From a virus: a stretch of DNA of 64,000 bases. This document shows, in pieces, positions 3,305-55,196 of the stretch (its first letter is position 1; every line of letters starts with the position of its first letter). The translations under genes were made by a program, and so were the position numbers. Location of the stretch: IMG/VR virus record IMGVR_UViG_3300035701_000001, one strand, 5' to 3'. The notes below the pieces were generated by a model. That model did no database searches. It was not told the origin of the DNA and saw only the letters and a program-made list of their open reading frames with translations.

Positions 3305-3650
3305 ATCCAGTTCCAGTGCAGGGAAACGGCTGCGTGCCTACCGGGCCGAACACGGGATGAGTCAATCCGCATTCGCCCGGCTGATTCCTGTGCACCTGGT
3401 GACCGTCTCCCAGTGGGAGCGCGGGGTGATCACACCGTCTTCGAAACGGACCGAGAAGATCGAAGAGATCACGGGAATTCCTGCCTCGAACTGGAGGGAA
3501 CCCCTGGCTTCTTCCCCCTCTCTTCCCGATCCCCTCCTTCGCGATTCTTCGTTCGTGAAAGTCCGCAGGACGGATGGAAGCCTCCTGTTGCTCGAACCCG
3601 CCGAAGGGGAGATGTACCGGATCGCCTGGCAGGAGGTTACCGGTGATTGA
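3297..3650 (+). CDS. XRE/Cro-family HTH protein
   Basis: LRAYRAEHGMSQSAFARLIPVHLVTVSQWERG. Confidence 0.9.
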   Translation: MGESSSSAGKRLRAYRAEHGMSQSAFARLIPVHLVTVSQWERGVITPSSKRTEKIEEITGIPASNWREPLASSPSLPDPLLRDSSFVKVRRTDGSLLLLEPAEGEMYRIAWQEVTGD

Positions 3651-4962
3651 ACCTTCCGATCCCTCCGAACTTCTGCTCGGAACCTACCCGAGCCGGTGCG
3701 CGGAGTGGAGAGAACGCATCCGGATCCGTCTGCAATCCCGGAACCAGGGAAAGGAGACCGAGGTTCTCCTCCAGATCGACGAGTTCGAGAACCGGTTGAA
3801 GAACGCGGTCCCCGAGGATGTGTTCGGGACGTCCGGCCGACCGTCCCTTCTGCGGATGGCCAGTACCCTCGATGCCAAGGTCCGCGAACTCACCGATGCC
3901 TACCTGCAGATGGAAGATCTCGTGGACAACGGGCTGTACCGGATCCGAGCCCGCAACGCGAACTACGGGATCTGGAATGGCAAGAAGAAGGAATTCGAGA
4001 TCTTCCGCAAGAAATTCGAGGAAGAGTTCTTGGACTCCGAACTGCACTGGGATGCCGATCCGCACCATGGAACGGCGAAACCCGACGCATTGATAGAAGT
4101 CCCCCCTCTCTTCGAAGATGCCTCCACACGATTCGCGTACCTGAAAGGGTGGTGCGAACGATTGCAAGAAGGAGTTCCGACCATGTCCAGTCCAGAGTCC
4201 CTATCCTCGGTCTCTTCCGAGACGATCCCGGAAGCGGTCGAGGTTCCGCCTTCCGTCGACCCTCCCTCTGCAGAGGTCTCGGCTTCCGAGGAAGAACCCC
4301 CCTCCGAACCTGTACCGGAAACCGAGGTTTCACAGGTCGAGACTCCGAAGGCTGATCCTCTCCCCCTCGAACTCCGTCGGGGCGGACTCCTCCTCACCGA
4401 GTACCGGGAGAAGGAGGGGCTCACCCAGGCACAACTCGCCAAGCGCCTGTACGTCTACCAGACGCTGATCCACTGGTGGGAAAAGGGGATGAAGAGCCCC
4501 GAGCCCAAGAAGGCAGCTTTCATCGAGAAAGTCACCGGCATCCCCACCGCTTCCTGGGACTTGCAGCGCATGGCCCGTCGCAAGCCTGGTCGTCCGCCCA
4601 AGGTGAAGACCGAGGAAATTCCCGTCGAAGTCGAGAAGAAGAAGCGGGGACGTCCGCCCAAGGCAAAGGTAGAGACTACACCGGTTTCGCCGAACCCGGA
4701 GTCCGACAAGAAGGCGGACAAGAAGGCCCACCCGAAGGCCGACAAGAAGGCCAACCCGAAGACCAGGAAAAAGACCAGGAGGATCTTGTGGGAAGCCCAG
4801 ATTCGGGGCAAGAAATCCAAGATCACAACCCGGCTCATCGTGGGGCCTCCTGACATGAAGTTCGTGCTGCTGGCGCTGTGGGAAGAACCCCTGCAGGGGA
4901 CCCTTATCAGCCTGCGACAGTCGGATCCCGAGTTCTTTGTCTCCGTCCTGGATCTGCCGTGA
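3643..4962 (+). CDS. multidomain DNA-binding protein (XRE HTH + two AT-hooks + Lys/Ala repeats)
   Basis: YREKEGLTQAQLAKRLYVYQTLIHWWEKG; RKPGRPPK, KKRGRPPK; DKKA repeats; GTG start with AGGAGG RBS. Confidence 0.8.
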   Translation: MIEPSDPSELLLGTYPSRCAEWRERIRIRLQSRNQGKETEVLLQIDEFENRLKNAVPEDVFGTSGRPSLLRMASTLDAKVRELTDAYLQMEDLVDNGLYRIRARNANYGIWNGKKKEFEIFRKKFEEEFLDSELHWDADPHHGTAKPDALIEVPPLFEDASTRFAYLKGWCERLQEGVPTMSSPESLSSVSSETIPEAVEVPPSVDPPSAEVSASEEEPPSEPVPETEVSQVETPKADPLPLELRRGGLLLTEYREKEGLTQAQLAKRLYVYQTLIHWWEKGMKSPEPKKAAFIEKVTGIPTASWDLQRMARRKPGRPPKVKTEEIPVEVEKKKRGRPPKAKVETTPVSPNPESDKKADKKAHPKADKKANPKTRKKTRRILWEAQIRGKKSKITTRLIVGPPDMKFVLLALWEEPLQGTLISLRQSDPEFFVSVLDLP

Positions 4963-8323: not shown

Positions 8324-8617
8324 ATGGCCCAGAGAACGCTGGAAGACGAGTTCCTTGAAGGCCTGTTCGGAACCGGAAGGGTGATTCGCCATTTCATCCC
8401 TCCGCCCGGCACGAGCTTCGACTTCTTCCTCTGCGGAGGAGCCGGATGGGGCACCGAGAACGCACAGAACGTGACCTGTCCGAAGTGTTTGGAGAGACTC
8501 CACGCCGAGGACACCTCGGATGCCCACGCGGTAGAGAAGGCCATCGCCGAGGGAGGAGAGACCTTCTCCCACGAACAAGTCGGGGCGGAACTCGGATTGC
8601 GGAATGACGATGCGTAA
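8324..8617 (+). CDS. hypothetical protein
   Basis: AAGGAG RBS; VTCPKC. Confidence 0.6.
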   Translation: MAQRTLEDEFLEGLFGTGRVIRHFIPPPGTSFDFFLCGGAGWGTENAQNVTCPKCLERLHAEDTSDAHAVEKAIAEGGETFSHEQVGAELGLRNDDA

Positions 8618-8843
8618 GACGATCCCCCGCTGCCCGAAATGCGGAAAGGAACCCTGGCAGTACCGGGAGACCGTGACCTTGGAGTGGTTCTTCGAGGTCG
8701 AGAACGGTCAAATCGTGGACCAAGGAGCCACGGACAACGCCACGCACGGACCCCCCGTCACCGCGATGTGCACGTGCGGCCACGAGTGGACACTGCGCGG
8801 GGTGAGCCAGATCATCGAGCTACCCCTACTGGAGAAGGATTGA
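8610..8843 (+). CDS. small Zn-ribbon protein
   Basis: CPKCG...CTCGHEW. Confidence 0.65.
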   Translation: MRKTIPRCPKCGKEPWQYRETVTLEWFFEVENGQIVDQGATDNATHGPPVTAMCTCGHEWTLRGVSQIIELPLLEKD

Positions 8844-9046
8844 ACCAGCGCCGTGCCAAGAAAGATGCCTGCCATGTCGTTGCCCGGCTGATCCATTCCT
8901 ACCTGGATGTCGGTCAACCTGGAAACGACTGCCTGGATGGAATCCACGGCTGGACCCCGAAAGACGAGAAGAAGCTCACTGCTGCGTTCCAGGGACTCAT
9001 CAATGAAATGGAGCATCGGGCCGAGCTACCGGAGGATGAACCATGA
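8840..9046 (+). CDS. hypothetical protein
   Basis: TTG start in TTGA overlap; coupled downstream. Confidence 0.55.
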   Translation: MNQRRAKKDACHVVARLIHSYLDVGQPGNDCLDGIHGWTPKDEKKLTAAFQGLINEMEHRAELPEDEP

Positions 9047-24871: not shown

Positions 24872-25164
24872 CCTGTGAAAACTGGACCCCAAGCCTCTGG
24901 CGTACTCTCATCGGCGAATACCTGGAGGTCAAGCCAAGTCTCGTCGCAAACCGGATGACACCCAACGACATGACGGCACGGCAACAGGTGGGCCTCTACC
25001 TCAAGTCCTTCGGAGGCAACGCCCTCGTGACGTTTCGCTCCCTGCCTCGTGACGTGCAACGGGGATACCAGAAGCAGTGGCCCGAGTTCGAGGGGCTCCT
25101 GGAGCAGTGCATCCAGGAAGGACCCGGAAATCCGATGCCGCCTCCTGTCGATTCGGAGATCTGA
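24868..25164 (+). CDS. hypothetical protein
   Basis: ATGA coupling. Confidence 0.6.
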   Translation: MTCENWTPSLWRTLIGEYLEVKPSLVANRMTPNDMTARQQVGLYLKSFGGNALVTFRSLPRDVQRGYQKQWPEFEGLLEQCIQEGPGNPMPPPVDSEI

Positions 25165-25324
25165 CAGAGAGATTCACAAAAATGCAAGCAGAACATCTTG
25201 AAACCGGACGTGTCCTCGGGTAGAGGAGGGTGGAAACGCAACTTCCACGGAGGAACAGGCCATGTACAGACCCGGATGCGTGAGACAGGCTCCGATGATG
25301 CCCGCGATAGGCATGGGGGACTCG

Positions 25325-25564
25325 ATGAAGAGTGCCAACCTCGCGAAGGTCGAGAACGGCTTCATCGTGACCCTCTGCTACCCGAAGAAGTTCGAGCCTT
25401 CTGCCGAAGAGCGAAAGCTGATGGAGAAGTACGCCGGATCATGCGAGGGGCCTCCGCTCGGACTCGGAGAACTCGACTTCGGAAACCAGATGGTCGAAGA
25501 GACCCATGTGGCCAAGACCTGGGACGAGGCGGTGCAGATCCTGGCCACCTGCATGGCCACCTGA
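25325..25564 (+). CDS. hypothetical protein (VENGFIV motif)
   Basis: GGGGGA RBS. Confidence 0.6.
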   Translation: MKSANLAKVENGFIVTLCYPKKFEPSAEERKLMEKYAGSCEGPPLGLGELDFGNQMVEETHVAKTWDEAVQILATCMAT

Positions 25565-25578
25565 CAAGGCGAGCCGAT

Positions 25579-25836
25579 CTCCGCGTTTTCCGCGTTCTTT
25601 GCGGTAGAAAAGAACGGAGGGATCACCACGAAGAACACGAAGAACACGAAGGATCGGATGGGCCGGACTCCGCGTTCTCCGCGTTCTCAGCAGTAGATTT
25701 CCTCTCCGGATTTCTACCACGAAGAACACGAAGGACATGAAGGAAGACGGAGGACCCTCTGATCTCCGCGTTCTCCGCGTTCTCAGCGGTAGAAAAGACT
25801 GAAAGAACCACCACGGAGGACGCGGAGGACACGGAG
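25579..25836. repeat. nonamer-based inverted-repeat cluster C (R-L x3)
   Basis: Same arms as clusters A and B with more variable loops; intergenic. Confidence 0.92.
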
Positions 25837-25883
25837 AGCACACCAGTCCAAACGGTTTCTCGACCTCTTGCCCATGAAACGGT

Positions 25884-25912
25884 TCGACACAGCCTGTGTC
25901 ACAGGGTAGAAG
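25884..25912 (+). promoter_or_regulatory. promoter/operator copy P4 (drives paralog array)
   Basis: TCGACA-17bp-TAGAAG; CGACAC-AGCCT-GTGTCA. Confidence 0.78.
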
Positions 25913-25932
25913 AGGGGAGAGGTTTCTCTCCA

Positions 25933-26502
25933 ATGTCCAAAACGAAGGACAAGACCCAGAAAAACAAGGTCCGAAAGGACAAGACCCGGTTCGTCTCCGT
26001 GCTCTTGCACCCTCCCAAGGGAGATCCACAGGGACTCTTGAGGGAAGGACCACTCGGGGCTCGGCCCCCCATGGCCTGGCTCTCGAAGACGAGCGAACGA
26101 AAGCACGAGGAGTGCCTGGATTGCGATCCCTGCTTCGAACTGCACCGGGAAGGCTATAGCCATTGCACGGTGTGTGAAGAGGAATGGCCGTGCAGCCAGG
26201 TGGGTAAGGTCGAGGTTCCTGCAAGCAAACAGTGGAAGCCCTGCGAGGGGTGCCCCCCCGAGAAAGAACGGTGGAGACCCTGTGGAGGGTGCCGGGGAGA
26301 TGCCATCGTGCTTGCCTGGGAAGGCCAGGTCATCGAGGGGGGCTGTACGTGGCTCACCATGAGATACCCATCGAGAATGTTCAGCACCCTTTACGTAGAT
26401 GTTGTCTTCATGCTCAAAGAGCAAACCGATTTCAGTTCCCTTCGCGCGGTGGGAGAGGTTGTCCTGCTCGATGCGAACGGCAAGGAGGTGTTCGGTGACT
26501 GA
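25933..26502 (+). CDS. array paralog 1 (GPCGARPP/LVLAWEG/LDAxGKE family)
   Basis: GLLREGPLGARPP...IVLAWEG...VLLDANGKEV; Cys-rich insert. Confidence 0.85.
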   Translation: MSKTKDKTQKNKVRKDKTRFVSVLLHPPKGDPQGLLREGPLGARPPMAWLSKTSERKHEECLDCDPCFELHREGYSHCTVCEEEWPCSQVGKVEVPASKQWKPCEGCPPEKERWRPCGGCRGDAIVLAWEGQVIEGGCTWLTMRYPSRMFSTLYVDVVFMLKEQTDFSSLRAVGEVVLLDANGKEVFGD

Positions 26503-26917
26503 CCCCTCCGCCATCCTGCTCGTTGCCACATCCGAACACGGCAAAGCCCTGTTGCGAGAGGGGCCGTGTGGAGCACGCCCCCCGATGGTCGTGCTGGGAG
26601 GGAAGGGCCGAGACGGTCCGGCACGGTGGCTTCCACGCGACCAGGCAGACTGGACAACGACCAATCGGAGATGTCCCATGTTGGGGCGGGATTTCGGCGG
26701 GGGCCATCGTGCCGTTACCGCTCTTGTTCTCGCCTGGGAGGGGGAAAACGTCCCCGAAGGCTGGGACCGCCTCACCCGTGTCGCGCCGAAGGTCTATCTG
26801 TCCCGTCTGAACTTCTTTCCCGACGGTGCGCTCGCCTGTGCGCGTGCGTACGAACGGGCCGGATTCGGGACCGTCGTCTGCCTGGGAACGGACGGCAAGG
26901 AGATGTCCGATGGCTGA
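26495..26917 (+). CDS. array paralog 2
   Basis: GTG start in GTGACTGA overlap; EGPCGARPP, LVLAWEG, CLGTDGKEM. Confidence 0.85.
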   Translation: MTDPSAILLVATSEHGKALLREGPCGARPPMVVLGGKGRDGPARWLPRDQADWTTTNRRCPMLGRDFGGGHRAVTALVLAWEGENVPEGWDRLTRVAPKVYLSRLNFFPDGALACARAYERAGFGTVVCLGTDGKEMSDG

Positions 26918-27443
26918 CCCCTCCGCCATCCTGCTCGTCCCTACACCCGAGTATACCGAGGTTCTCTTCCGTACTGGCCCCTGTGGAGCCCGACCTCCAC
27001 TGGTCGGTCGCTTTGCGGTCGCAGGGACCGCGAAGTGCCCTCACTGCCAGAAAACGCTTCGCTACAGCCCCCCTCCAACCGAGCAGACCTCCGATCTCTG
27101 GTGTTGCGATTCCTGCGACCAGTCGTGGTACGAACGGCAGATCTACGACTTCTCGGAGCATCGCTGGGAAACCTACCGGGGCTGGAAACCGGTTCCCATG
27201 CAGTGGGATCGCTGTGCACTGGTCCTTGCCTGGGAAGGCAAACCGTTGGAAGAAGGCCTTTTCCGTGCAGTCCGTGCACTGGGAAAGGACCATGGAAGGC
27301 TCGAACGGATCCAGGCGTACCTGAACTGCATCGAAATGAGGGGGATTCCCGATCTCCTGGAAACCTGCCAGTACCATAGGCTTGATACGTTGGGCACGTT
27401 GATCCACCTCGACGCGGAAGGCAAGGAGGTCTCCGGTGGCTGA
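26910..27443 (+). CDS. array paralog 3
   Basis: ATGGCTGA overlap; TGPCGARPP, CPHC..CDSC insert, HLDAEGKEV. Confidence 0.85.
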   Translation: MADPSAILLVPTPEYTEVLFRTGPCGARPPLVGRFAVAGTAKCPHCQKTLRYSPPPTEQTSDLWCCDSCDQSWYERQIYDFSEHRWETYRGWKPVPMQWDRCALVLAWEGKPLEEGLFRAVRALGKDHGRLERIQAYLNCIEMRGIPDLLETCQYHRLDTLGTLIHLDAEGKEVSGG

Positions 27444-27861
27444 CGTCCATGCCCTCTTGCTCGTCCCCCCCAAGAGAGATCCGAAGGGCCTGCTCCGCGA
27501 AGGACCCTGCGGGGCAAGGCCTCCCAATGTCCACTGGACGACCTGTCCGGTGCACGGGCGCAGTGCCCTGGTCTCCAACGACAAACTTCCACCCGCACCT
27601 TGCCCTGAGTACGCCTGCGGACCCATCCACACCCACGAGGCCCTCGTGCTTGCGTGGGACGGACAGCCGGTGGACGAGGGAATCGACCGGGCCGTCCGGG
27701 TTTTGGGTTTTCACCGGAGCCATGTCTACAAGATCGTGATGGCCCATCTGGGACTGCTGAAAGGCCCCGAGAACCTGCTGCGCTGGTTGCGGGACGATTC
27801 GGTGAATCTCGGTACGCTCATCCGGCTCGACGAAGATGGAAAGGAGATCTCCGATAGCTGA
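27436..27861 (+). CDS. array paralog 4
   Basis: GTGGCTGA overlap; CPVHG insert. Confidence 0.85.
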   Translation: MADVHALLLVPPKRDPKGLLREGPCGARPPNVHWTTCPVHGRSALVSNDKLPPAPCPEYACGPIHTHEALVLAWDGQPVDEGIDRAVRVLGFHRSHVYKIVMAHLGLLKGPENLLRWLRDDSVNLGTLIRLDEDGKEISDS

Positions 27862-28270
27862 CCCCTTCGCCGTCCTGTTCGTTCCCACCGAAGAACATCG
27901 GGAAGCCCTGCTGCACCGTGGCCCGTGCGGAGCCCGGCCGCCGATGGCACAAATCAACTCTCTTCTCGTTGGTGACAAATGGGTGCCGATCTGGGTCGAG
28001 GTGACGTATGAGTATAGACCTGGATTCGCACTCGTTCTTGCCTGGGAAGACAAGTCCGTTCTCGAAGGGCTGGAACGACTGCACCACCATGCAACGGAGT
28101 TCTCCCTCGCTGAGAAATGCCGATGGAAATGGAACCTGAAGGCCCCTTCGGACTGGATGGTCCCTGACCAGGTTTTCGAAGTCGTACAAGTCGCCCGGCT
28201 TGCCGAGGAAATGGGGCTTGGAACCGTTGTCTGCCTCGATGCGGAAGGCAAGGAGATCTCCCATGGCTGA
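27854..28270 (+). CDS. array paralog 5 (ATA at the homologous start; alternative ATG at 27836)
   Basis: ATAGCTGA overlap after AAGGAG; HRGPCGARPP, LVLAWED, CLDAEGKEI. Confidence 0.8.
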   Translation: MADPFAVLFVPTEEHREALLHRGPCGARPPMAQINSLLVGDKWVPIWVEVTYEYRPGFALVLAWEDKSVLEGLERLHHHATEFSLAEKCRWKWNLKAPSDWMVPDQVFEVVQVARLAEEMGLGTVVCLDAEGKEISHG

Positions 28271-28697
28271 TCTCTTCGCCGTCCTGCTCGTCCCCTCTCC
28301 CGAGCACCTGGAACTCACGCTCGATGGTCCCTACGGAGCCCGGCCCCCAACGGCCCGTGCCTTCACGTGCCCCGTGCACGGTCGGGGCCCCTGGTACGTC
28401 CACAACTACGCGCTGAGCACACGCTGCTGCAGTTCCGTGAAGGCAGATTCCACCTGTACGAAAGATTGTCCTCCCACCGTCGGCCTCGTGCTGGCCTGGG
28501 ACGGAAAACCCATCGAGATGGGCATGTTCTATGCAGTACGCGCTCTCGAAAAAGCCATCGGTAGACGCCACGAAATTTTTGTGTCCTGGCACTGTGTCGA
28601 CATGGACAACGTGAGGAATCTGCGACATGACTGCCTTGGCCATGAACTTGGAAAGTTCCTCAGTCTAAACGCCGATGGACGGGAGATGAACCCATGA
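28263..28697 (+). CDS. array paralog 6
   Basis: ATGGCTGA overlap; DGPYGARPP, CPVHG insert. Confidence 0.85.
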   Translation: MADLFAVLLVPSPEHLELTLDGPYGARPPTARAFTCPVHGRGPWYVHNYALSTRCCSSVKADSTCTKDCPPTVGLVLAWDGKPIEMGMFYAVRALEKAIGRRHEIFVSWHCVDMDNVRNLRHDCLGHELGKFLSLNADGREMNP

Positions 28698-29764
28698 GCG
28701 ATGTGGGAACTCCCATTCTACTGACGCGAGACGCCTTCCGAACTGCCGTGTTCGAGCGGGACCAGTACCGGTGTGTGCTCTGCGAAAAACCAGCCGCCGA
28801 TGCCCATCATATCCTCGACCGTCGTCTCTGGCCCGACGAGGGCTACTACCTGGAAAACGGGGCCTCGGTCTGCCCCGAGCACCACATCCTATGTGAACAG
28901 ACCGTAGTCTCCTGCGAGGAACTCCGGGAACGGTGTGGTATTACCCACGCCATCCTTCCTCCGCACCTCTACGATGACGGGGACTCCCACTATGACAAGT
29001 GGGGCAACCCGATCCTCTCGAACGGAATGCGGATGCGGGGGGAACTGTTCTTCGACGAGTCCGTCCAGAAAGTCCTCGTGGAAGGAAGGGTTCTCGGCCT
29101 CTTCACCCAGTACGTGAAATATCCGAGGACGTACCACCTCCCCTGGAGTCCTGGAGTCACAAAAGACGACCGGGTGCAGACCGATCTTTCGGCCTTCAAG
29201 GGGCAGGAGGTGGTGGCAACCGTCAAGATGGACGGGGAAAACACGACTTTTTACCGGAACTATATCCACGCCCGGTCCCTGGAGTACCGGCCACGGGTAG
29301 ACCGCGACCGGGTGAAAGCCCTCCATGCGGTCCTTTCCCACGAGATCCCTTATGGATGGCGCATTTGCGGCGAAAACCTCTGGGCAGAGCACAGCATCCG
29401 CTACGAGCACCTTCCGTCCATCTTTCAGGTCTTCTCGGTCTGGGACGATCAAAACCACTGCCTTCCGTGGGACGAAACGGTGGAATGGGTAGCCATGCTC
29501 GATCTACATATGGTTCCAGTGCTGTACCGAGGCCCTTGGGATGAAGCCCGTGTCCGGTCGCTCTATGTCCCGACGTTTCAAGACGAAGCGTGCGAGGGGT
29601 TCGTGATTCGAGTCACTGCAGGGTTCCGCTATGGGGAATTCCGCCGGAAAGTCGCCAAGTACGTCCGGGAGGGGCATGTCCGGACACAGGCCCATTGGAC
29701 CCGTTCCATCCGACCCAATGGTCTTCGGATCGATACTGAAGGAAAGGAGACTCCCCATGTCTGA
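28694..29764 (+). CDS. HNH endonuclease-RNA ligase fusion
   Basis: N-term VFERDQYRCVLC...AHHI...NGASVCPEHH (HNH); C-term KYPRTYHLPWSPG, KMDGEN (I), CGEN (III), EGFVIR (IV), AKYVR (V). Confidence 0.9.
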   Translation: MSDVGTPILLTRDAFRTAVFERDQYRCVLCEKPAADAHHILDRRLWPDEGYYLENGASVCPEHHILCEQTVVSCEELRERCGITHAILPPHLYDDGDSHYDKWGNPILSNGMRMRGELFFDESVQKVLVEGRVLGLFTQYVKYPRTYHLPWSPGVTKDDRVQTDLSAFKGQEVVATVKMDGENTTFYRNYIHARSLEYRPRVDRDRVKALHAVLSHEIPYGWRICGENLWAEHSIRYEHLPSIFQVFSVWDDQNHCLPWDETVEWVAMLDLHMVPVLYRGPWDEARVRSLYVPTFQDEACEGFVIRVTAGFRYGEFRRKVAKYVREGHVRTQAHWTRSIRPNGLRIDTEGKETPHV

Positions 29765-30152
29765 TGTGTGGACCATCCTGCTCATTCCAAAGAAAGAGGA
29801 CCCGTTTGGAATCCTTCGGAGAGGACCGTTCGGAGCCCAGCCCCCGACTCTGATGAACTTCTCATCCAACCCGACCTCGAACAAGTCGGGGAGATGGGAC
29901 TGCTCGGTTCACATTCCAGATCAGCCAGGTTGGAAATCTCCACCGGAAGCACTCGTCCTCGCCCACGAAAGGGGTGTGGTCGAGGAGGGGGTTGTCTGGC
30001 TCGCAATGCGGTGTCCACCGATTGTCTACGGAAACCTGTACGGCCCGATCTTCGGCATGCTCAAGGAAGGATGGGTGTACGAACCGCTTGAGGAGGTGGG
30101 TACGGTCCTCCTGCTCGACCGGGAAGGGAAGGAGATCCAGCCGAGAACATGA
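29757..30152 (+). CDS. array paralog 7
   Basis: ATGTCTGA overlap; RGPFGAQPP, ALVLAHE, LLDREGKEI. Confidence 0.85.
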   Translation: MSDVWTILLIPKKEDPFGILRRGPFGAQPPTLMNFSSNPTSNKSGRWDCSVHIPDQPGWKSPPEALVLAHERGVVEEGVVWLAMRCPPIVYGNLYGPIFGMLKEGWVYEPLEEVGTVLLLDREGKEIQPRT

Positions 30153-30189
30153 AACGGGAGATCCTGTTCGAATTCTTGGGAGGTGTCCG

Positions 30190-30687
30190 ATGGGTGACGG
30201 GAAGGCGATTCTGCTGATTCCAGCCAAGGGAGACCCGTTGGATCTGCTGGCAGAAGAGGGACCCTGTGGGGCTCTTCCGCCCAGAGCATGGTGCCACCGG
30301 ACTCCTGCTCGGGTCCACGAAGCATGCCAGGACTGCGATGATCTGCGTGATCTGCACCAGGGAGAGGACGGAGACTGGTGCTTCCACTGCACGGAGTGCC
30401 ACGAGCGATGGCCCTGTCTGGAGGCTGGTAAGGAGGTCGAGCCTCCCTCCGAGACATGGGAACCGGGTGGACGGTTTCCCGATGCCCTCGTGCTGGCCTG
30501 GGATGGAAAAACACTGGGTTACGGCTGCCTGTGGCTCGCAGAAAGAGCCGGTCACGTGGTGCCTGGCTTGATCCGAGGCAAGGTTGACTTCCTGCTCTCA
30601 GGTATCGGAGACATGCCGGGATTCCTCGGGGAGTACGGAACCGTCGTCCTACTGGATGTGGAAGGCAAGGAGGTTTCCCGTGGTTGA
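30190..30687 (+). CDS. array paralog 8
   Basis: GGAGGTG RBS; EGPCGALPP; insert similar to paralog 1. Confidence 0.85.
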   Translation: MGDGKAILLIPAKGDPLDLLAEEGPCGALPPRAWCHRTPARVHEACQDCDDLRDLHQGEDGDWCFHCTECHERWPCLEAGKEVEPPSETWEPGGRFPDALVLAWDGKTLGYGCLWLAERAGHVVPGLIRGKVDFLLSGIGDMPGFLGEYGTVVLLDVEGKEVSRG

Positions 30688-31111
30688 TGTGCACTCGGTC
30701 CTGCTTGTTCCGTCTCCCGAGCATGTCAAAGCACTACTGTGCTGTGGACCTTGCGGAGCCCGTCCTCCAATGGCACACCGTGCTGTACGCCCCATGGGTG
30801 CAGACTTCGAAATGTTCTGGTGTGGAGCACAACTCACTGAGACTCCGTGGGGAACTGGATTTGTTCTTGTCCTTGCATGGGAAGGGGAGACGGTTCCCGA
30901 AGGAATGGATCGTGTGACTCGCTGCGTTGAAAAGAAGGGACAAATGGTGGATTCAGAGCACGAAAAGCACAACAACCTTTTTGCTGCAAACTGGATACAT
31001 CAAGCGAATTTTTCGGATTTGAACAACAAGAAAAGCGGTGTACCTGCATTATTGCTCCAGTTTGGAACCCTCGTCTTTCTCGATGCGAACGGCAAGGAGA
31101 TTCAGCCATGA
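30680..31111 (+). CDS. array paralog 9 (AT-shifted codons)
   Basis: GTGGTTGA overlap; CGPCGARPP, LVLAWEG, FLDANGKEI. Confidence 0.85.
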   Translation: MVDVHSVLLVPSPEHVKALLCCGPCGARPPMAHRAVRPMGADFEMFWCGAQLTETPWGTGFVLVLAWEGETVPEGMDRVTRCVEKKGQMVDSEHEKHNNLFAANWIHQANFSDLNNKKSGVPALLLQFGTLVFLDANGKEIQP

Positions 31112-31518
31112 CGAAACGGCTTCTCTGTGCCATTCTGCTGATTCCCGCCCTGGAAGATCCGCTGGGACTTCTCCAGGAAGGCCCCTGTGGAGCCAGGCCT
31201 CCCCTGGCAATGAAGCCGGACTGCGAAATCCACGGGGCCCAGTGGATCCTCGGCAAGGAAGTTCCCTGCTGCCAGAACGCAGGACACAGCATTCTCATGG
31301 GAAACTGCGTGGAGGCCCTTGTACTCGTCTGGGACGGCAAACCGGTCCGCGAAGGGTGCGGGAAGCTGGAAGAAGCCTGGATGCCCTATGTGGCCGTCCG
31401 CTGGATTGACCAGGTTCTCCTGGAGATCCTGCAGGGAACCTCACGCAAGTCTCTCGGGGAAGATTGCCCCGGAACGCTCGTGTTCCTCGATGCCGAAAGG
31501 CGGGAGATCACTCCATGA
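31108..31518 (+). CDS. array paralog 10
   Basis: EGPCGARPP, CEIHG insert, FLDAERREI. Confidence 0.85.
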   Translation: MTKRLLCAILLIPALEDPLGLLQEGPCGARPPLAMKPDCEIHGAQWILGKEVPCCQNAGHSILMGNCVEALVLVWDGKPVREGCGKLEEAWMPYVAVRWIDQVLLEILQGTSRKSLGEDCPGTLVFLDAERREITP

Positions 31519-31925
31519 CTACTACTCCTGTCCACGCCGTTCTGCTCACCCCGGAGAAGGGGGACCCTCTCGGCCTGCTCCACGGGGAACCGTGCGGAGC
31601 CAAACCCCCCATCGCGTTTCGCGTGGACTGCAAGATCCACGGGGTTGGATGGTTCGCGGCCAACGAGAAACCCTGCTGCCTGAACGCGGGAATCCACCTC
31701 ATGGCAGGAGAGTCCACGGAAGCTCTGGTCCTCGTCTGGAAGGGAGAACCCGTTCCGATGGGGATGGACCGGGTACGTCGCTGTGGGCTCGACATCGAGG
31801 ACGACGAGGTCCTTCGGAACGCAGAAGATTGGGCGACCATCGGAATCATGGAGGGGACCGTCGTTCTGCTCGATGTACGGGGGACCAAAGGCCCTCCCAC
31901 TCACTGCAGCCGAACAGAACCGTAG
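31515..31925 (+). CDS. array paralog 11
   Basis: GEPCGAKPP, CKIHG insert, GTVVLLD with diverged tail. Confidence 0.85.
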   Translation: MTTTPVHAVLLTPEKGDPLGLLHGEPCGAKPPIAFRVDCKIHGVGWFAANEKPCCLNAGIHLMAGESTEALVLVWKGEPVPMGMDRVRRCGLDIEDDEVLRNAEDWATIGIMEGTVVLLDVRGTKGPPTHCSRTEP

Positions 31926-31937
31926 AAGGTAAATTCC

Positions 31938-32405
31938 ATGAAGAAGACCTCTGCTTCGACAATGAAACGGTCCGCTCTCCTCCTGGTCCCGGATCCGGGC
32001 TTTCCCGAAGGCCTGCTCCGGGAAGGACCCTGTGGGGCAAAGCCACCCGTCCTCGCCCGTGCGGAAGGCCTTGCCCTCAAGGAATGGGTCGATACGGGCT
32101 GGGGGCCGGACTTTACCGACCTCGGACCAGGATTCCGCAACCTCCAGCGGGCGCTCGTCCTCGTCTGGGAAGGAGAACCCGTTCCCGAAGGGATGCACCG
32201 GCTGGCGGATTGCCTGACTTCCCTGCTGGAAAAAAATCCGAACATGACCCCCTTTACGTTCCTGACACAGGGGATGTCCGGCCCGATGGTGCTCGGCAAG
32301 TGCGCCGAGCAGGCGGGGCTCGGAACCCTGGTGCTCCTCGACGAGGAAGGCAAGGAAATTCCGAGAACTGCTGACCTGGAAAGGATGGAAAGGGTGGTTT
32401 CATGA
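31938..32405 (+). CDS. array paralog 12
   Basis: EGPCGAKPP, LVLVWEG, LLDEEGKEI. Confidence 0.85.
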   Translation: MKKTSASTMKRSALLLVPDPGFPEGLLREGPCGAKPPVLARAEGLALKEWVDTGWGPDFTDLGPGFRNLQRALVLVWEGEPVPEGMHRLADCLTSLLEKNPNMTPFTFLTQGMSGPMVLGKCAEQAGLGTLVLLDEEGKEIPRTADLERMERVVS

Positions 32406-32683
32406 AGGATAACCCAGCCTGGATCGCAGCCATCCTGGCGAGCATTCCCCCGGCAGGGATCGTGGCCAACACCGAATACCCGATTCGTATAGGAGAGACG
32501 GAAGCCGTTCCTCCGCCGGACCCGACTCTTCCTCTGGACTTCTCGACCGCTGCCACGCCAAGACCCCGAAAGGGGTCCTTCCATCGGCCCGGCTTTGACG
32601 AAAAGGCCTTCTGGGAGAAGGTCGAGCACCGCCGGAAGAAGAACAAGGTGGCTCGCAAGGCCCGCAGGAAAAACAAGAAGTAA
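32402..32683 (+). CDS. small basic hypothetical protein
   Basis: ATGA coupling; Arg/Lys-rich tail. Confidence 0.6.
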   Translation: MKDNPAWIAAILASIPPAGIVANTEYPIRIGETEAVPPPDPTLPLDFSTAATPRPRKGSFHRPGFDEKAFWEKVEHRRKKNKVARKARRKNKK

Positions 32684-32696
32684 CGGGAGAAACACC

Positions 32697-33110
32697 ATGC
32701 CTATTGACCAGGCAGTCCTCGACGAAGCTATTGCAGCATTCCATGGAGCCAAGAACGCCAAAAAGGAAGCGGACGATGCGTTGTGTCTTGCACGGAAGCG
32801 CATTGACCTGGCCTACCAGGAAGTACAGCAAGCTCGCATCCGATGGTGCGAGGCCATAAAAGGATCTGGACAAGAAGCCGCTTTCCTCGTTCCATGGGAA
32901 CACATTGCCTGGAGTGATTCCAAGAAACAGTGGCAACCCATGGGAGGTTCCCACTGCATGCAGGCCATCGAGGAATTCGTCCTGCTCGCAGGCGTTCTCG
33001 GAACCTCCGTTTCCTTCGAGTTCAACGGAACGGTACTGTCCGTGGACTCTGGTTCGAACCCGAGCAGGATCGAGGTTATCTACTGGGAAAAACGGGGTGT
33101 GTCATGGTGA
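32697..33110 (+). CDS. hypothetical protein
   Basis: GGGAG RBS. Confidence 0.65.
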   Translation: MPIDQAVLDEAIAAFHGAKNAKKEADDALCLARKRIDLAYQEVQQARIRWCEAIKGSGQEAAFLVPWEHIAWSDSKKQWQPMGGSHCMQAIEEFVLLAGVLGTSVSFEFNGTVLSVDSGSNPSRIEVIYWEKRGVSW

Positions 33111-43319: not shown

Positions 43320-43582
43320 CCGAACCCGAAGACAAGCCCCTCCTGTCCGTCCATCTGCATAACGAGGACCTTGTGCTCAAGATCCAGTATCTCTGGGTCG
43401 AACCCGAGGTCTGGGGCATCGCGCTCGCAGACATCCTGCGGAACGTCGCGGTCGCTTACGCAGGTGAAGACATCGTAAAACGCGAGAAAATCGAGGCAGT
43501 CATCTGGAAGATGATGCGGTCCGAAATGCACCGGCAGACGAGTGCCCTGCACGTGCTTTCTCCGAAAGTGGAAGAACAATGA
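43316..43582 (+). CDS. hypothetical protein (DUF5076-like W..PE.WGI.LAD)
   Basis: WVEPEVWGIALADILRNVAVAY. Confidence 0.6.
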   Translation: MTEPEDKPLLSVHLHNEDLVLKIQYLWVEPEVWGIALADILRNVAVAYAGEDIVKREKIEAVIWKMMRSEMHRQTSALHVLSPKVEEQ

Positions 43583-44025
43583 CGGATCAAGGATATCCAA
43601 GGCTGAACCTCGAAGAGGTCAAGGTCATCGTGTTCGTTCCCCAGGAGGGGGACCCGTTGGGCCTGGTGAAGGATGGGGAACATGGAGACCGGCCACCTCG
43701 AATGTCGAGGTTGATCTTCGGTGGAAGGGAGGACAAGACCGTCCAATGGAGGTCAGTCGGGGCTAGAGACCTGGTCCTCAGCTACGAACCTCCCAAAGTC
43801 AATTCGTACTACTCCATCCTGGGGCTCCTCCTCCTGTATAAGGGCATTCCCGTCCAAATGGGGCTGTGGATCCTCACAGCGACGATAGCCTGCAAGGACA
43901 GGCCCGAGTTGCTTTCCGTCTACTCGAAGAAGCAGGCGAATCAGATCGCACAACTGGCCCAGACTTGTGGAATGGGAACCGTGGTCTACCTCGACGCCGA
44001 GAACAGGGAGATCGAGTCGACATGA
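43579..44025 (+). CDS. orphan member of the 25.9-32.4 kb array family
   Basis: VFVPQEGDPLGLVKDGEHGDRPP...LVLSYE...GTVVYLDAENREI. Confidence 0.8.
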   Translation: MTDQGYPRLNLEEVKVIVFVPQEGDPLGLVKDGEHGDRPPRMSRLIFGGREDKTVQWRSVGARDLVLSYEPPKVNSYYSILGLLLLYKGIPVQMGLWILTATIACKDRPELLSVYSKKQANQIAQLAQTCGMGTVVYLDAENREIEST

Positions 44026-52772: not shown

Positions 52773-53386
52773 CCTCCACACCCGAACGTCTGGCGCTTCT
52801 GCGCGCCGCCTACACCCGCCACCATCTGCCCCTGCGGGGGGTCCAGACACTGGGTGGCTGGTTCTGTACCCAGGTTGACGTGGCAAACTCCGTGTGGGTT
52901 CACGAACTCCGGAGCGGAGCGCGCTACCTCGCAACGGTACTCATGAAGACGAGTTCCGAGGTCACGAGCATCTTCGGTCCGACTGGACTGGCTGGGGTAC
53001 GTCACGGTTCCGATGGTTCCCTTGCTCCGATGGGAGAATGGGAAGGGGAACTCGATGACCCACGCAAGGCGTTGCTCGATGGAGATCTCCTGCCCGACCT
53101 CTCCGACCCGCTGACCTTCCACCTGGCTTTGCGCGAGCTTGCCGAGGCAGACGGCGTTCCCAACCGGCCGCACAGCCCCAACATCGGGTTTGGCTGGACA
53201 CAGGGATCCGCCGATCAGCGCGCTGAAAGGAGCGACGAACGGGGAGAATGTCCCCCGTTCTGGACGCTCGTCGTGATGGATCCCAATGGCTGGACCTCAC
53301 GGCACTACTTTCACATCGACACGGACGATCCCATCGACGCCCTGCTCCAAACCCGCATCCAGGTACACGAGGAATCAAAGAAATGA
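52769..53386 (+). CDS. hypothetical protein, paralog of 55193
   Basis: RLALLRAAY...LLPDLSDP.T..LAL..LA...TDDPIDALL. Confidence 0.7.
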   Translation: MTSTPERLALLRAAYTRHHLPLRGVQTLGGWFCTQVDVANSVWVHELRSGARYLATVLMKTSSEVTSIFGPTGLAGVRHGSDGSLAPMGEWEGELDDPRKALLDGDLLPDLSDPLTFHLALRELAEADGVPNRPHSPNIGFGWTQGSADQRAERSDERGECPPFWTLVVMDPNGWTSRHYFHIDTDDPIDALLQTRIQVHEESKK

Positions 53387-54222
53387 CCTTGCCTCGGGTC
53401 GAAAGCTGCACCGTGATGAGCGGCAGGAATCCCCACCGAGTCCTGTCCGGAGACCTCCGGGGTTGGATGGCATACCAGGGAGACTTGCGCCTGACGGCAT
53501 GGATCGAGGTGGACGCAAGAAAGGCACGGCTCACCGCTTCCAATATGGAGGCCAACGTGCTGCAGCGTTGCGACTTGTCCGAAGCGGATCTGTCCGGTTC
53601 CTCGCTTCGCGGGGCGGCGTTCCTCGACTGCACCCTGAAAAAAACCACCTGGAAAGGTGCTGAAATTACATCGGCCACCTTCATCGGATGTGATCTCTCG
53701 GGATCCGATTTCGTGGGCGCGGACCTGGAGTGGACAACCCTGTACGACTGCGACCTATCCTTCGTCTCTTTCTGGCGCTGTGGCCTGAAGGACACGCACC
53801 TCTACTCCTGCCATGGCCCGGCCCTCTACCTGCGGTCGGACCTGGAACTGCTGCGGGAAGTCTCGGGAGGACGACTTCGGGCCTACAGGTGGGAAACCCC
53901 AGAGGGTGCCTGGCGTTCTCCTCCCTATGAAGTCGGGAAAACTTACCACGCTGCTCTCAACCGCAACCGTCGACTCGGCTGTGCTCCCGGCATCCATGCT
54001 GCAACTCTCGACTGGTGTATCGACATTGCGATGCGAGAAACCCACTGGAACGGAACCGGAGAAGCCCCGTTCCGCATCCTGGAAGTCTCGGCTTCTCCCG
54101 CCGAAGTCATCGTTCCCTTCACGCGAGCACGACTGCGGTGCTCGGACCTTACCGTGGAACGAATCGTACCCCAGGAAGAATGGCTGCATTCCCTCGAAAC
54201 TTCAGACGAGGCGACTCCATGA
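53383..54222 (+). CDS. pentapeptide-repeat protein
   Basis: CDLSEADLSGSSLRGAAFLDCTLKKTTWKGAEITSATFIGCDLSGSDFVGADL; C-terminal YEVGKTY...CAPGIH. Confidence 0.9.
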   Translation: MTLPRVESCTVMSGRNPHRVLSGDLRGWMAYQGDLRLTAWIEVDARKARLTASNMEANVLQRCDLSEADLSGSSLRGAAFLDCTLKKTTWKGAEITSATFIGCDLSGSDFVGADLEWTTLYDCDLSFVSFWRCGLKDTHLYSCHGPALYLRSDLELLREVSGGRLRAYRWETPEGAWRSPPYEVGKTYHAALNRNRRLGCAPGIHAATLDWCIDIAMRETHWNGTGEAPFRILEVSASPAEVIVPFTRARLRCSDLTVERIVPQEEWLHSLETSDEATP

Positions 54223-55196
54223 CCTACCCCCCACCCTCTTGTCTACAAGGCTCTGTCAAACCAATTCCTGAACACCCCCCCATCGTATCGGACAAGCCCC
54301 TGCTCCGGATGAAGCTCGAACTGGTACGGGGCTGCCCGTATACGTGTGGTGCCTGCAATCCGCCGAAGGACTGGCTTCCTATGTCCACCGAGAAGGTCTA
54401 TGCAGCCGTCCGGTCCTTTGAGATGGCCCGGATGACGCAAGAAGATGTCTTTCCAATGCTTCACTTGCACGGATGGGGAGAACCCTCCCTTCGTCCAGAT
54501 CTGGTTGACGTCGTTGCCAGGATTCGGGACATGACCCCGGCCCTCCTGGTGCTAAGCACCAATGGCGCGGTTCCCGAACGCATTGCAACCCTCCCTGTGG
54601 ATCGCCTTGTTCTTGGCCTGGACTCTCTCGACCCGACCATGCATCGAAAGACCCGTGGCTGGTCCCTCGACAACACCCTGCGTCTGCTTTCGGTCGTAGA
54701 TCTCTCTCACGTCACCCTCACATCCCTGGTTCACAGGGAAAACACAGCAGATATCCTTCGGATCTCGGACCTTTTCTCCACTTCGATCCGGCATGTGGTG
54801 CGACGATACGACGAGGATTTGATTGGGGGAACAGGGAACTACACAGGGCCGGACGTCGCGGACCCGTCATTCTTGAAAAAGTTCTGGAAGTGCCTAGAAG
54901 AGCGTGGATATGACGTTTCCGAAATCGGTTCCTCGGACGGAGAGGCCCGCCGGGGGGAATGCACGGTCGGCTACGATGGCCAAGTCTATCGGTGCCTTTC
55001 CCACTGGTCGACGACAAGCCCCGTGGACATCCCGGTGTACGATGCCCTCACTCTCGGAATGCCCACGGGGTGTACACGTTGCTTCTGCTGTAAACCCCGG
55101 TTGGCCGTTCGGCCAACTGCCCGAGAACCGAAGCCGTGGGATGGAGAACCCGTAAAGAAAATGGACTTTGATACGAAGGAGTTGAAAAGACAATGA
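54219..55196 (+). CDS. radical SAM enzyme with Cys-rich (SPASM/twitch-like) C-terminus
   Basis: CPYTCGAC (CxxxCxxC), GWGEPSL, STNG, GLDS; CTVGYDGQVYRC...CTRCFCC. Confidence 0.9.
   Translation: MTYPPPSCLQGSVKPIPEHPPIVSDKPLLRMKLELVRGCPYTCGACNPPKDWLPMSTEKVYAAVRSFEMARMTQEDVFPMLHLHGWGEPSLRPDLVDVVARIRDMTPALLVLSTNGAVPERIATLPVDRLVLGLDSLDPTMHRKTRGWSLDNTLRLLSVVDLSHVTLTSLVHRENTADILRISDLFSTSIRHVVRRYDEDLIGGTGNYTGPDVADPSFLKKFWKCLEERGYDVSEIGSSDGEARRGECTVGYDGQVYRCLSHWSTTSPVDIPVYDALTLGMPTGCTRCFCCKPRLAVRPTAREPKPWDGEPVKKMDFDTKELKRQ

Follow-up and report, generated by a model that had tools for sequence, protein, structure and literature searches.

An intact HNH-RNA ligase gene inside a phage paralog array and the family-like codons at its 3' end

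In the phage DNA analysed here (the window, a stretch of 64,000 nucleotides), an intact gene for an RNA ligase with an N-terminal HNH domain lies between copies 6 and 7 of an array of 12 tandem paralogs, and its reading frame ends in 11 codons that come from the paralog family. We consider it probable that this enzyme, to which an RNA-repair function is assigned from its family, arrived in a lineage-specific block with its 3' joint in the last codons of a family gene, that these codons were kept as the initiation region of copy 7, and that the peptide they encode is incidental. The locus is an unusually clear case in which a foreign gene, whose enzyme can be identified, lies in a paralog array and still bears the last codons of the neighbouring family. 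The features referred to below are as follows.

25933..32405, + strand: array of 12 tandem paralogs, translationally coupled (alignment of members)
28263..28697, + strand: paralog copy 6; the ligase starts within its stop (ATGA overlap), and an SD-like GGGAG for the ligase lies in its tail
28694..29764, + strand: HNH-RNA ligase ORF, 356 aa, intact (PF09414, phrog_24030, invariant columns, AF2 model)
28702..30178, + strand: block specific to this phage when compared with close relatives, made up of codon 3 onwards of the ligase, copy 7 and a 26-nt spacer (limits of similarity to the relatives L001 and L030)
28727..28897, + strand: HNH (beta-beta-alpha-metal finger) domain, residues about 12-68 (PHROG HNH, IscB HNH profile match, invariant residues)
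29207..29665, + strand: nucleotidyltransferase (ligase) domain, residues 172-324 (Pfam, invariant residues, Foldseek)
29729..29764, + strand: family-derived tail, last 11 codons and stop (junction profile, PWM, homolog alignment, pLDDT)
29757..30152, + strand: paralog copy 7, the most divergent array member, with no ortholog among the fetched loci

Identity and relatives of the enzyme

The protein matches PF09414 (RNA_ligase) over residues 172-324 with an E-value of 2.2e-30 (106.5 bits, cut-off 27) and phrog_24030 'RNA ligase' over residues 9-337 with 1.4e-128. At its N-terminus, eight PHROG HNH families match residues 13-76 (5e-6 to 7e-3), and the HNH part of a 31-sequence family profile found the HNH domain of IscB in the PDB (E=0.002); Pfam PF01844 was not reported for the window's copy and is precomputed for some homologs. 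All invariant columns of the 31-homolog alignment are retained, which includes C27, C30, H38, H39, N55, C60 and H64 in the HNH domain and K178, D180, G181, E182, E227, E301, G302, K322 and R325 in the ligase domain. Motif I is KMDGEN (residues 178-183, with the codon of lysine K178 at 29225-29227), and E227, E301-G302, K322 and R325 belong to what we take to be motifs III, IV and V. The original prediction had placed an HNH-RNA ligase with a KxDGxN motif between paralogs 6 and 7, and the ORF, its domains, its motif and its position were all verified.

Because PDB sequence searches gave no ligase match (the single protein matched nothing, and the 31-sequence profile matched in its HNH part only), the ligase fold is seen through a predicted model. 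The AlphaFold (AF2) model of the protein, with a pLDDT of 91.4 and a pTM of 0.86, was matched by Foldseek to NgrRnl (6vt4, E=1.2e-6) and T4 Rnl2 (2hvr, E=5e-6) with probability 1.0, while T4 Rnl1 (5tt6) ranked 46th with E=4e-3. PF09414 was the sole Pfam family at E<=0.1, and NCBIfam returned a single sub-threshold match, DRB0094. From the profile matches and the modelled fold, the gene product is best described as an intact ATP-dependent Rnl2/Rnl5-like ligase with an N-terminal HNH nuclease domain, not an Rnl1. T4 Rnl1, to which the gene had first been compared, was the wrong reference. The T4 Rnl1/Pnk system, which repairs tRNA against PrrC, does share with the window's ligase a phage ATP-dependent RNA ligase and a presumed counter-defence role; it differs in that the window's ligase has no PF09511 match, in the weaker match to the 5tt6 fold, and in that the window showed no kinase/phosphatase partner: a Walker-A kinase screen, a weak test for Pnk, gave matches only in non-coding-like frames, and no tRNA was found.

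More than 7,000 related proteins are in the databases, the nearest non-identical one at 64% identity, and the identical architecture is present at 45-58% identity in jumbo phages RsoM2USA and SCTP-2, the Caulobacter CcrSC group and Acinetobacter ME3. Enzymes of this type are frequent in large phages and presumably mend RNA, for instance tRNA, that host nucleases have cut. By analogy with this family, the window's ligase would seal nicks in RNA repair and may have an anti-defence role. Among the fetched loci, the closest ligase homologs (L006, 3356-4630, and L005, 5905-7947) differ in their neighbours: one has an RtcB ligase two genes away, and another adjoins a gene with an mCpol domain. Such neighbours would suit a role of the ligase family in RNA repair or conflict. 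No array-family genes occur in the contexts of these two homologs.

Fusion of an HNH domain to an Rnl2-family ligase has been described previously (PMC7824862). With the HNH-Rnl2 fusions of jumbo phages (phrog_24030; Ralstonia phage RsoM2USA, Salicola phage SCTP-2, Caulobacter phage CcrSC), the window's ligase has in common the two-domain architecture of residues 9-345, at 51-58% identity; unlike them, it adds 11 C-terminal residues that derive from an unrelated neighbouring family, and it is coupled translationally on both sides within a paralog array. The nick-sealing ligases Naegleria gruberi Rnl5 and T4 Rnl2 share its nucleotidyltransferase fold and the KxDGxN motif I, but are only 14-19% identical to it, and the window's ligase is without the OB domain (Rnl5) or the Rnl2 C-terminal domain and carries an HNH domain and a linker of about 100 residues at its N-terminus. 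The codon-position GC of the gene (0.65/0.41/0.70) is normal for this phage, and its composition thus gives no hint of recent transfer.

The paralog array and its junctions

The array family is recognized by the signature LL.P...GPCGARPP / LVLAW.G / LD..GKE and found no match in Pfam and PHROG searches. A database search returned about 100 relatives in metagenomes, with only 5 loci of the family in IMG/VR, and among the relatives searched, arrays of it are confined to contigs of one metagenome. In a fairly confident model of a family protein (pLDDT 82), the conserved segments LLLVP (N-terminal) and L.RLD (C-terminal) are predicted beta-strands, and a fold search with this model found no solved fold (best Z 2.7). 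When the family HMM was run against the six-frame window, the ligase ORF was not matched: the N-terminal GPCGARPP and central LVLAW blocks are absent from it, and its resemblance to the family is limited to the last 11 codons. Outside the array, 11 kb beyond it, a divergent 13th member is encoded at 43579-44025 on the + strand (family HMM 1.2e-12); its tail is matched by the junction profile with E=2.2e-6, and its GPCGARPP block has decayed to GEHGDRPP.

Genes in the array are joined either by an 8-nt start/stop overlap of the form RTGNNTGA (n=7, one with ATA at the start position) or by an ATGA overlap (n=3). The ligase has one of each: the junction with copy 6 is of the ATGA type, and that with copy 7 is of the 8-nt type (ATGTCTGA), which is common to 6 other array junctions. 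The geometry of translational coupling is present at both ends of the ligase. A scan for promoters and terminators found no promoter-like sites in 25000-33000 and terminator-like sites at background level; since no such signal stands out within the array, the ligase is likely expressed within the coupled operon. At the junction between copies 4 and 5 (27854), ATA stands in place of ATG/GTG (ATAGCTGA), so that copy 5 starts either at the ATG at 27836, with a 26-nt overlap, or at a non-standard start codon; the relative L001 has ATG at the equivalent position.

Relatives and the two ends of the ligase ORF

Comparison with two relatives places breakpoints on both sides of the ligase and copy 7. 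Copies 4, 5 and 6 have orthologs at 86-89% DNA identity on the contig L001 (JGI 3300032156), whose similarity to the window stops at 28701, which is 8 nt into the ligase ORF. The original prediction had suggested looking at the neighbours in related phages, and in L001 the slot after the copy-6 ortholog is indeed filled by a different, unrelated gene of 73 aa. L030, from the same metagenome as L001, is 96.8% identical to 30179-31873 (copies 8-11); its similarity starts at the SD of copy 8, upstream of which L030 has an HTH gene and a non-coding stretch. In the 63 fetched loci, the best match to copy 7 is 35% identical and no ortholog of it was found, nor did the relatives include a donor or an ancestral paralog upstream of a copy-7 ortholog. 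The segment 28702-30178 is missing from the recovered relative contigs and, on these limits of similarity, is specific to this phage among the sampled relatives; as these are short metagenome contigs, the ligase may yet be present in the genomes they come from. In a second assembly, SRR11719878, the protein is identical and the arrangement matches, with gene calls differing at copy 9.

At the C-terminus, the alignment with more than 100 ligase homologs ceases at residue 345 (...PNGLR), beyond which the homologs have 0-18 variable residues before their end, and the window's ligase has the peptide IDTEGKETPHV. The motif D.[ED]G[KR]E occurs in 46 of 107 family proteins (last 20 aa) and in none of 119 ligase homologs (last 16 aa), so that the comparison called for by the original prediction found the tail unique to this copy; nor did any recovered relative have the ligase in this slot with another tail. 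Residues 351-356 are disordered in the model (pLDDT 46). Within the tail DNA, the SD of copy 7 (29741-29749, GGAAAGGAG) is separated by a 7-nt spacer from the stop/start overlap of 8 nt (29757-29764). When 13 family-to-family junctions from the window and two relatives were built into an nhmmer profile, it matched 29730-29759 in register with the copy 7 start (E=0.0012 in 128 kb). The match to the junction consensus is short, 29 of 41 nt, and its subtype, ...P-x-V with ATGTCTGA, is also found in the relative L002. Of what had been noticed at the outset, the 8-nt overlap was verified, and the resemblance of the D..GKE terminus to the family is greater than chance would give.

If the tail is family DNA, then the head might be as well, and the ligase could have replaced the interior of a paralog in frame, with the first approximately 9 and the last 11 codons as paralog remnants. 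The start M[SAT][DEK][VI] is found in 35 of 107 family proteins and in none of 119 ligase homologs, of which only 7 have [VIL]LL near the start, and a foreign 175-aa gene of L002 also has a family-like head. Against these stand the DNA data. A head profile that finds copy 7 has no match at 28694; the Ser codon of the ligase is AGC, whereas copy 7 and the family gene of one relative have TCT and codon 2 of other family heads encodes Ala, Thr or Val; and similarity to L001 ends 8 nt into the ORF. MSD- starts are found also in ligase homologs and, in a related phage, in unrelated genes with an ATGA overlap; the LL comes from the LLTRD of the ligase family itself, and the head of the L002 175-aa gene scores just E=0.67. 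We consider whole-body replacement unlikely and treat the head as the ligase's own; the likeness of its MSDVGTPILL to family starts, which had been read as homology, has no support at the DNA level.

Could the tail, on the other hand, have converged on the family sequence or matched it by chance? Any gene placed before copy 7 must end in a stop that overlaps the copy 7 start and must supply an SD at a set distance, AAG GAG is Lys-Glu and an SD at once, and the spacer is unlike that of the family (-0.6 bits, p=0.096). These constraints were removed by scoring the tail with a PWM from which the SD and the start/overlap positions had been left out. The tail still scored 13 bits, which was reached by 14 of 127,918 positions, mostly true family tails, and the 20 nt upstream of the SD alone scored 13.6 bits, reached by 13 of the 127,918 positions, true family tails included (p about 1e-4). 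Of the 46 sites that have GGAG and RTG in register, only the true family junctions rank above the ligase tail. Copy 8 is not preceded by a family gene, and its leader scores -21.6 bits over the equivalent 20 nt; thus a family leader alone is insufficient to give the tail signal. Convergence or chance is slightly less probable still than replacement, and the sequence comparisons indicate that the tail is family-derived beyond what the need for a ribosome-binding site explains.

Free-standing HNH homing genes are frequent in phages and the ligase gene is lineage-specific here, yet it is very improbable that it is a self-mobile element that cut and invaded the array: HNH and ligase are conserved together at about 60% identity in thousands of proteins with an invariant linker region, which argues for one enzyme, copy 7 is also within the inserted block, and no flanking direct or inverted repeats of note and no target duplication were found around the ligase.

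Proposed origin and the junction as a site of recombination

We propose that two sub-arrays of the paralog family are separated by a lineage-specific block, which holds the ligase and the divergent copy 7, and that the 3' joint of the ligase falls within the 3'-terminal part of a family gene. The ligase would have lost its native stop, the ORF reading on through the last 11 family codons, and recombination within the paralog 3' end would have kept the RBS and the overlapping start of copy 7. We infer both this order of events and the reason why the tail was retained: the 11 codons would have been kept because, as DNA and RNA, they form the translation-initiation region of copy 7, and the family-like peptide on the ligase would then be a by-product, probably without function. 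The original prediction had gone further and proposed capture as a cassette via homology of the junctions. The foreign nature of the gene and a 3' end that is the junction stood, while the 5' end and a homology-driven mechanism did not; since similarity to the junction at one end fits insertion into a paralog and replacement of a paralog equally, cassette capture is only partly supported. The chimeric tail is an ordinary recombination scar and not a new kind of system, and the enzyme belongs to a known type. The retained tail nevertheless pins the recombination joint to within a few bases and indicates that the initiation region of the next gene survived the event. It also suggests that the family's ...GKE C-terminus can travel as a DNA signal and not as a protein function, so that annotators should not take the tail as a shared protein motif.

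PeSLs of T4-type phages are mobile regulatory cassettes with an intergenic promoter and stem-loop (PMC2839356, PMC4122927). The array resembles them in its short repeated expression signals at gene boundaries, in its hyperplastic region, and in the coincidence of these signals with breakpoints of insertion, deletion or replacement between close relatives. It differs in that the repeat lies inside coding sequence (the last 11 or so codons, the SD and the overlapping start) with overlapping junctions, in that no promoter- or terminator-like signal is outstanding, and in that the repeat is present at only one ligase end. For breakpoints at repeated expression signals, PeSLs are the closest described counterpart.

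Several observations bear on whether the junction is prone to recombination. The right end of the similarity between L030 and the window falls exactly at the LLD codons of the copy 11 tail, which matches the position of the ligase joint. In a relative, the copy content of the array differs, and foreign genes of 175 and 183 aa (sizes as in the ENA contig) interrupt it. A 126-aa family member of L002 (869-1249) is a mosaic, its 5' part being similar to window copy 5 (74%) and its 3' part to copy 2 (80%), which indicates recombination between array members. The family tail is also carried by ORFs without the N-terminal block, one of 132 aa at L003 2769-3167 (= L045 about 8450-8849) and one of 72 aa at L013 792-1010, and in L013 the junction is duplicated, nearly verbatim, on both sides of the ORF; these ORFs may be simply degenerate family members. 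Such signs of a hotspot are suggestive of a cassette mechanism, short of proof. We put forward only tentatively, as a rather doubtful extension, that the coding junction of about 40 nt (tail, SD and overlapping start) is a recurrent recombination site at which large phages swap, delete or capture ORF bodies in a coupled operon, the ligase being one captured cassette. If true, PeSLs or integron cassettes would have a counterpart here that lies in coding sequence.

Two foreign genes were tried as further junction carriers and were non-significant, the 175-aa gene of L002 (E=0.67) and the 73-aa gene of L001 (E=3.3), and neither is counted as a junction carrier here. At copy 11, the tails of the window (31873-31925) and L030 (3766-3845) are wholly different despite 96.8% identity. 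The window's copy 11 tail has lost the GKE/SD signal and is followed by a 12-nt spacer and then copy 12. Elsewhere in the window, the + strand at 53248-55196 has genes for a pentapeptide-repeat protein (53248-54222) and, at 54015-55196, for a radical SAM protein, among ORFs otherwise without matches, and an HTH protein is encoded at 3574-4962.
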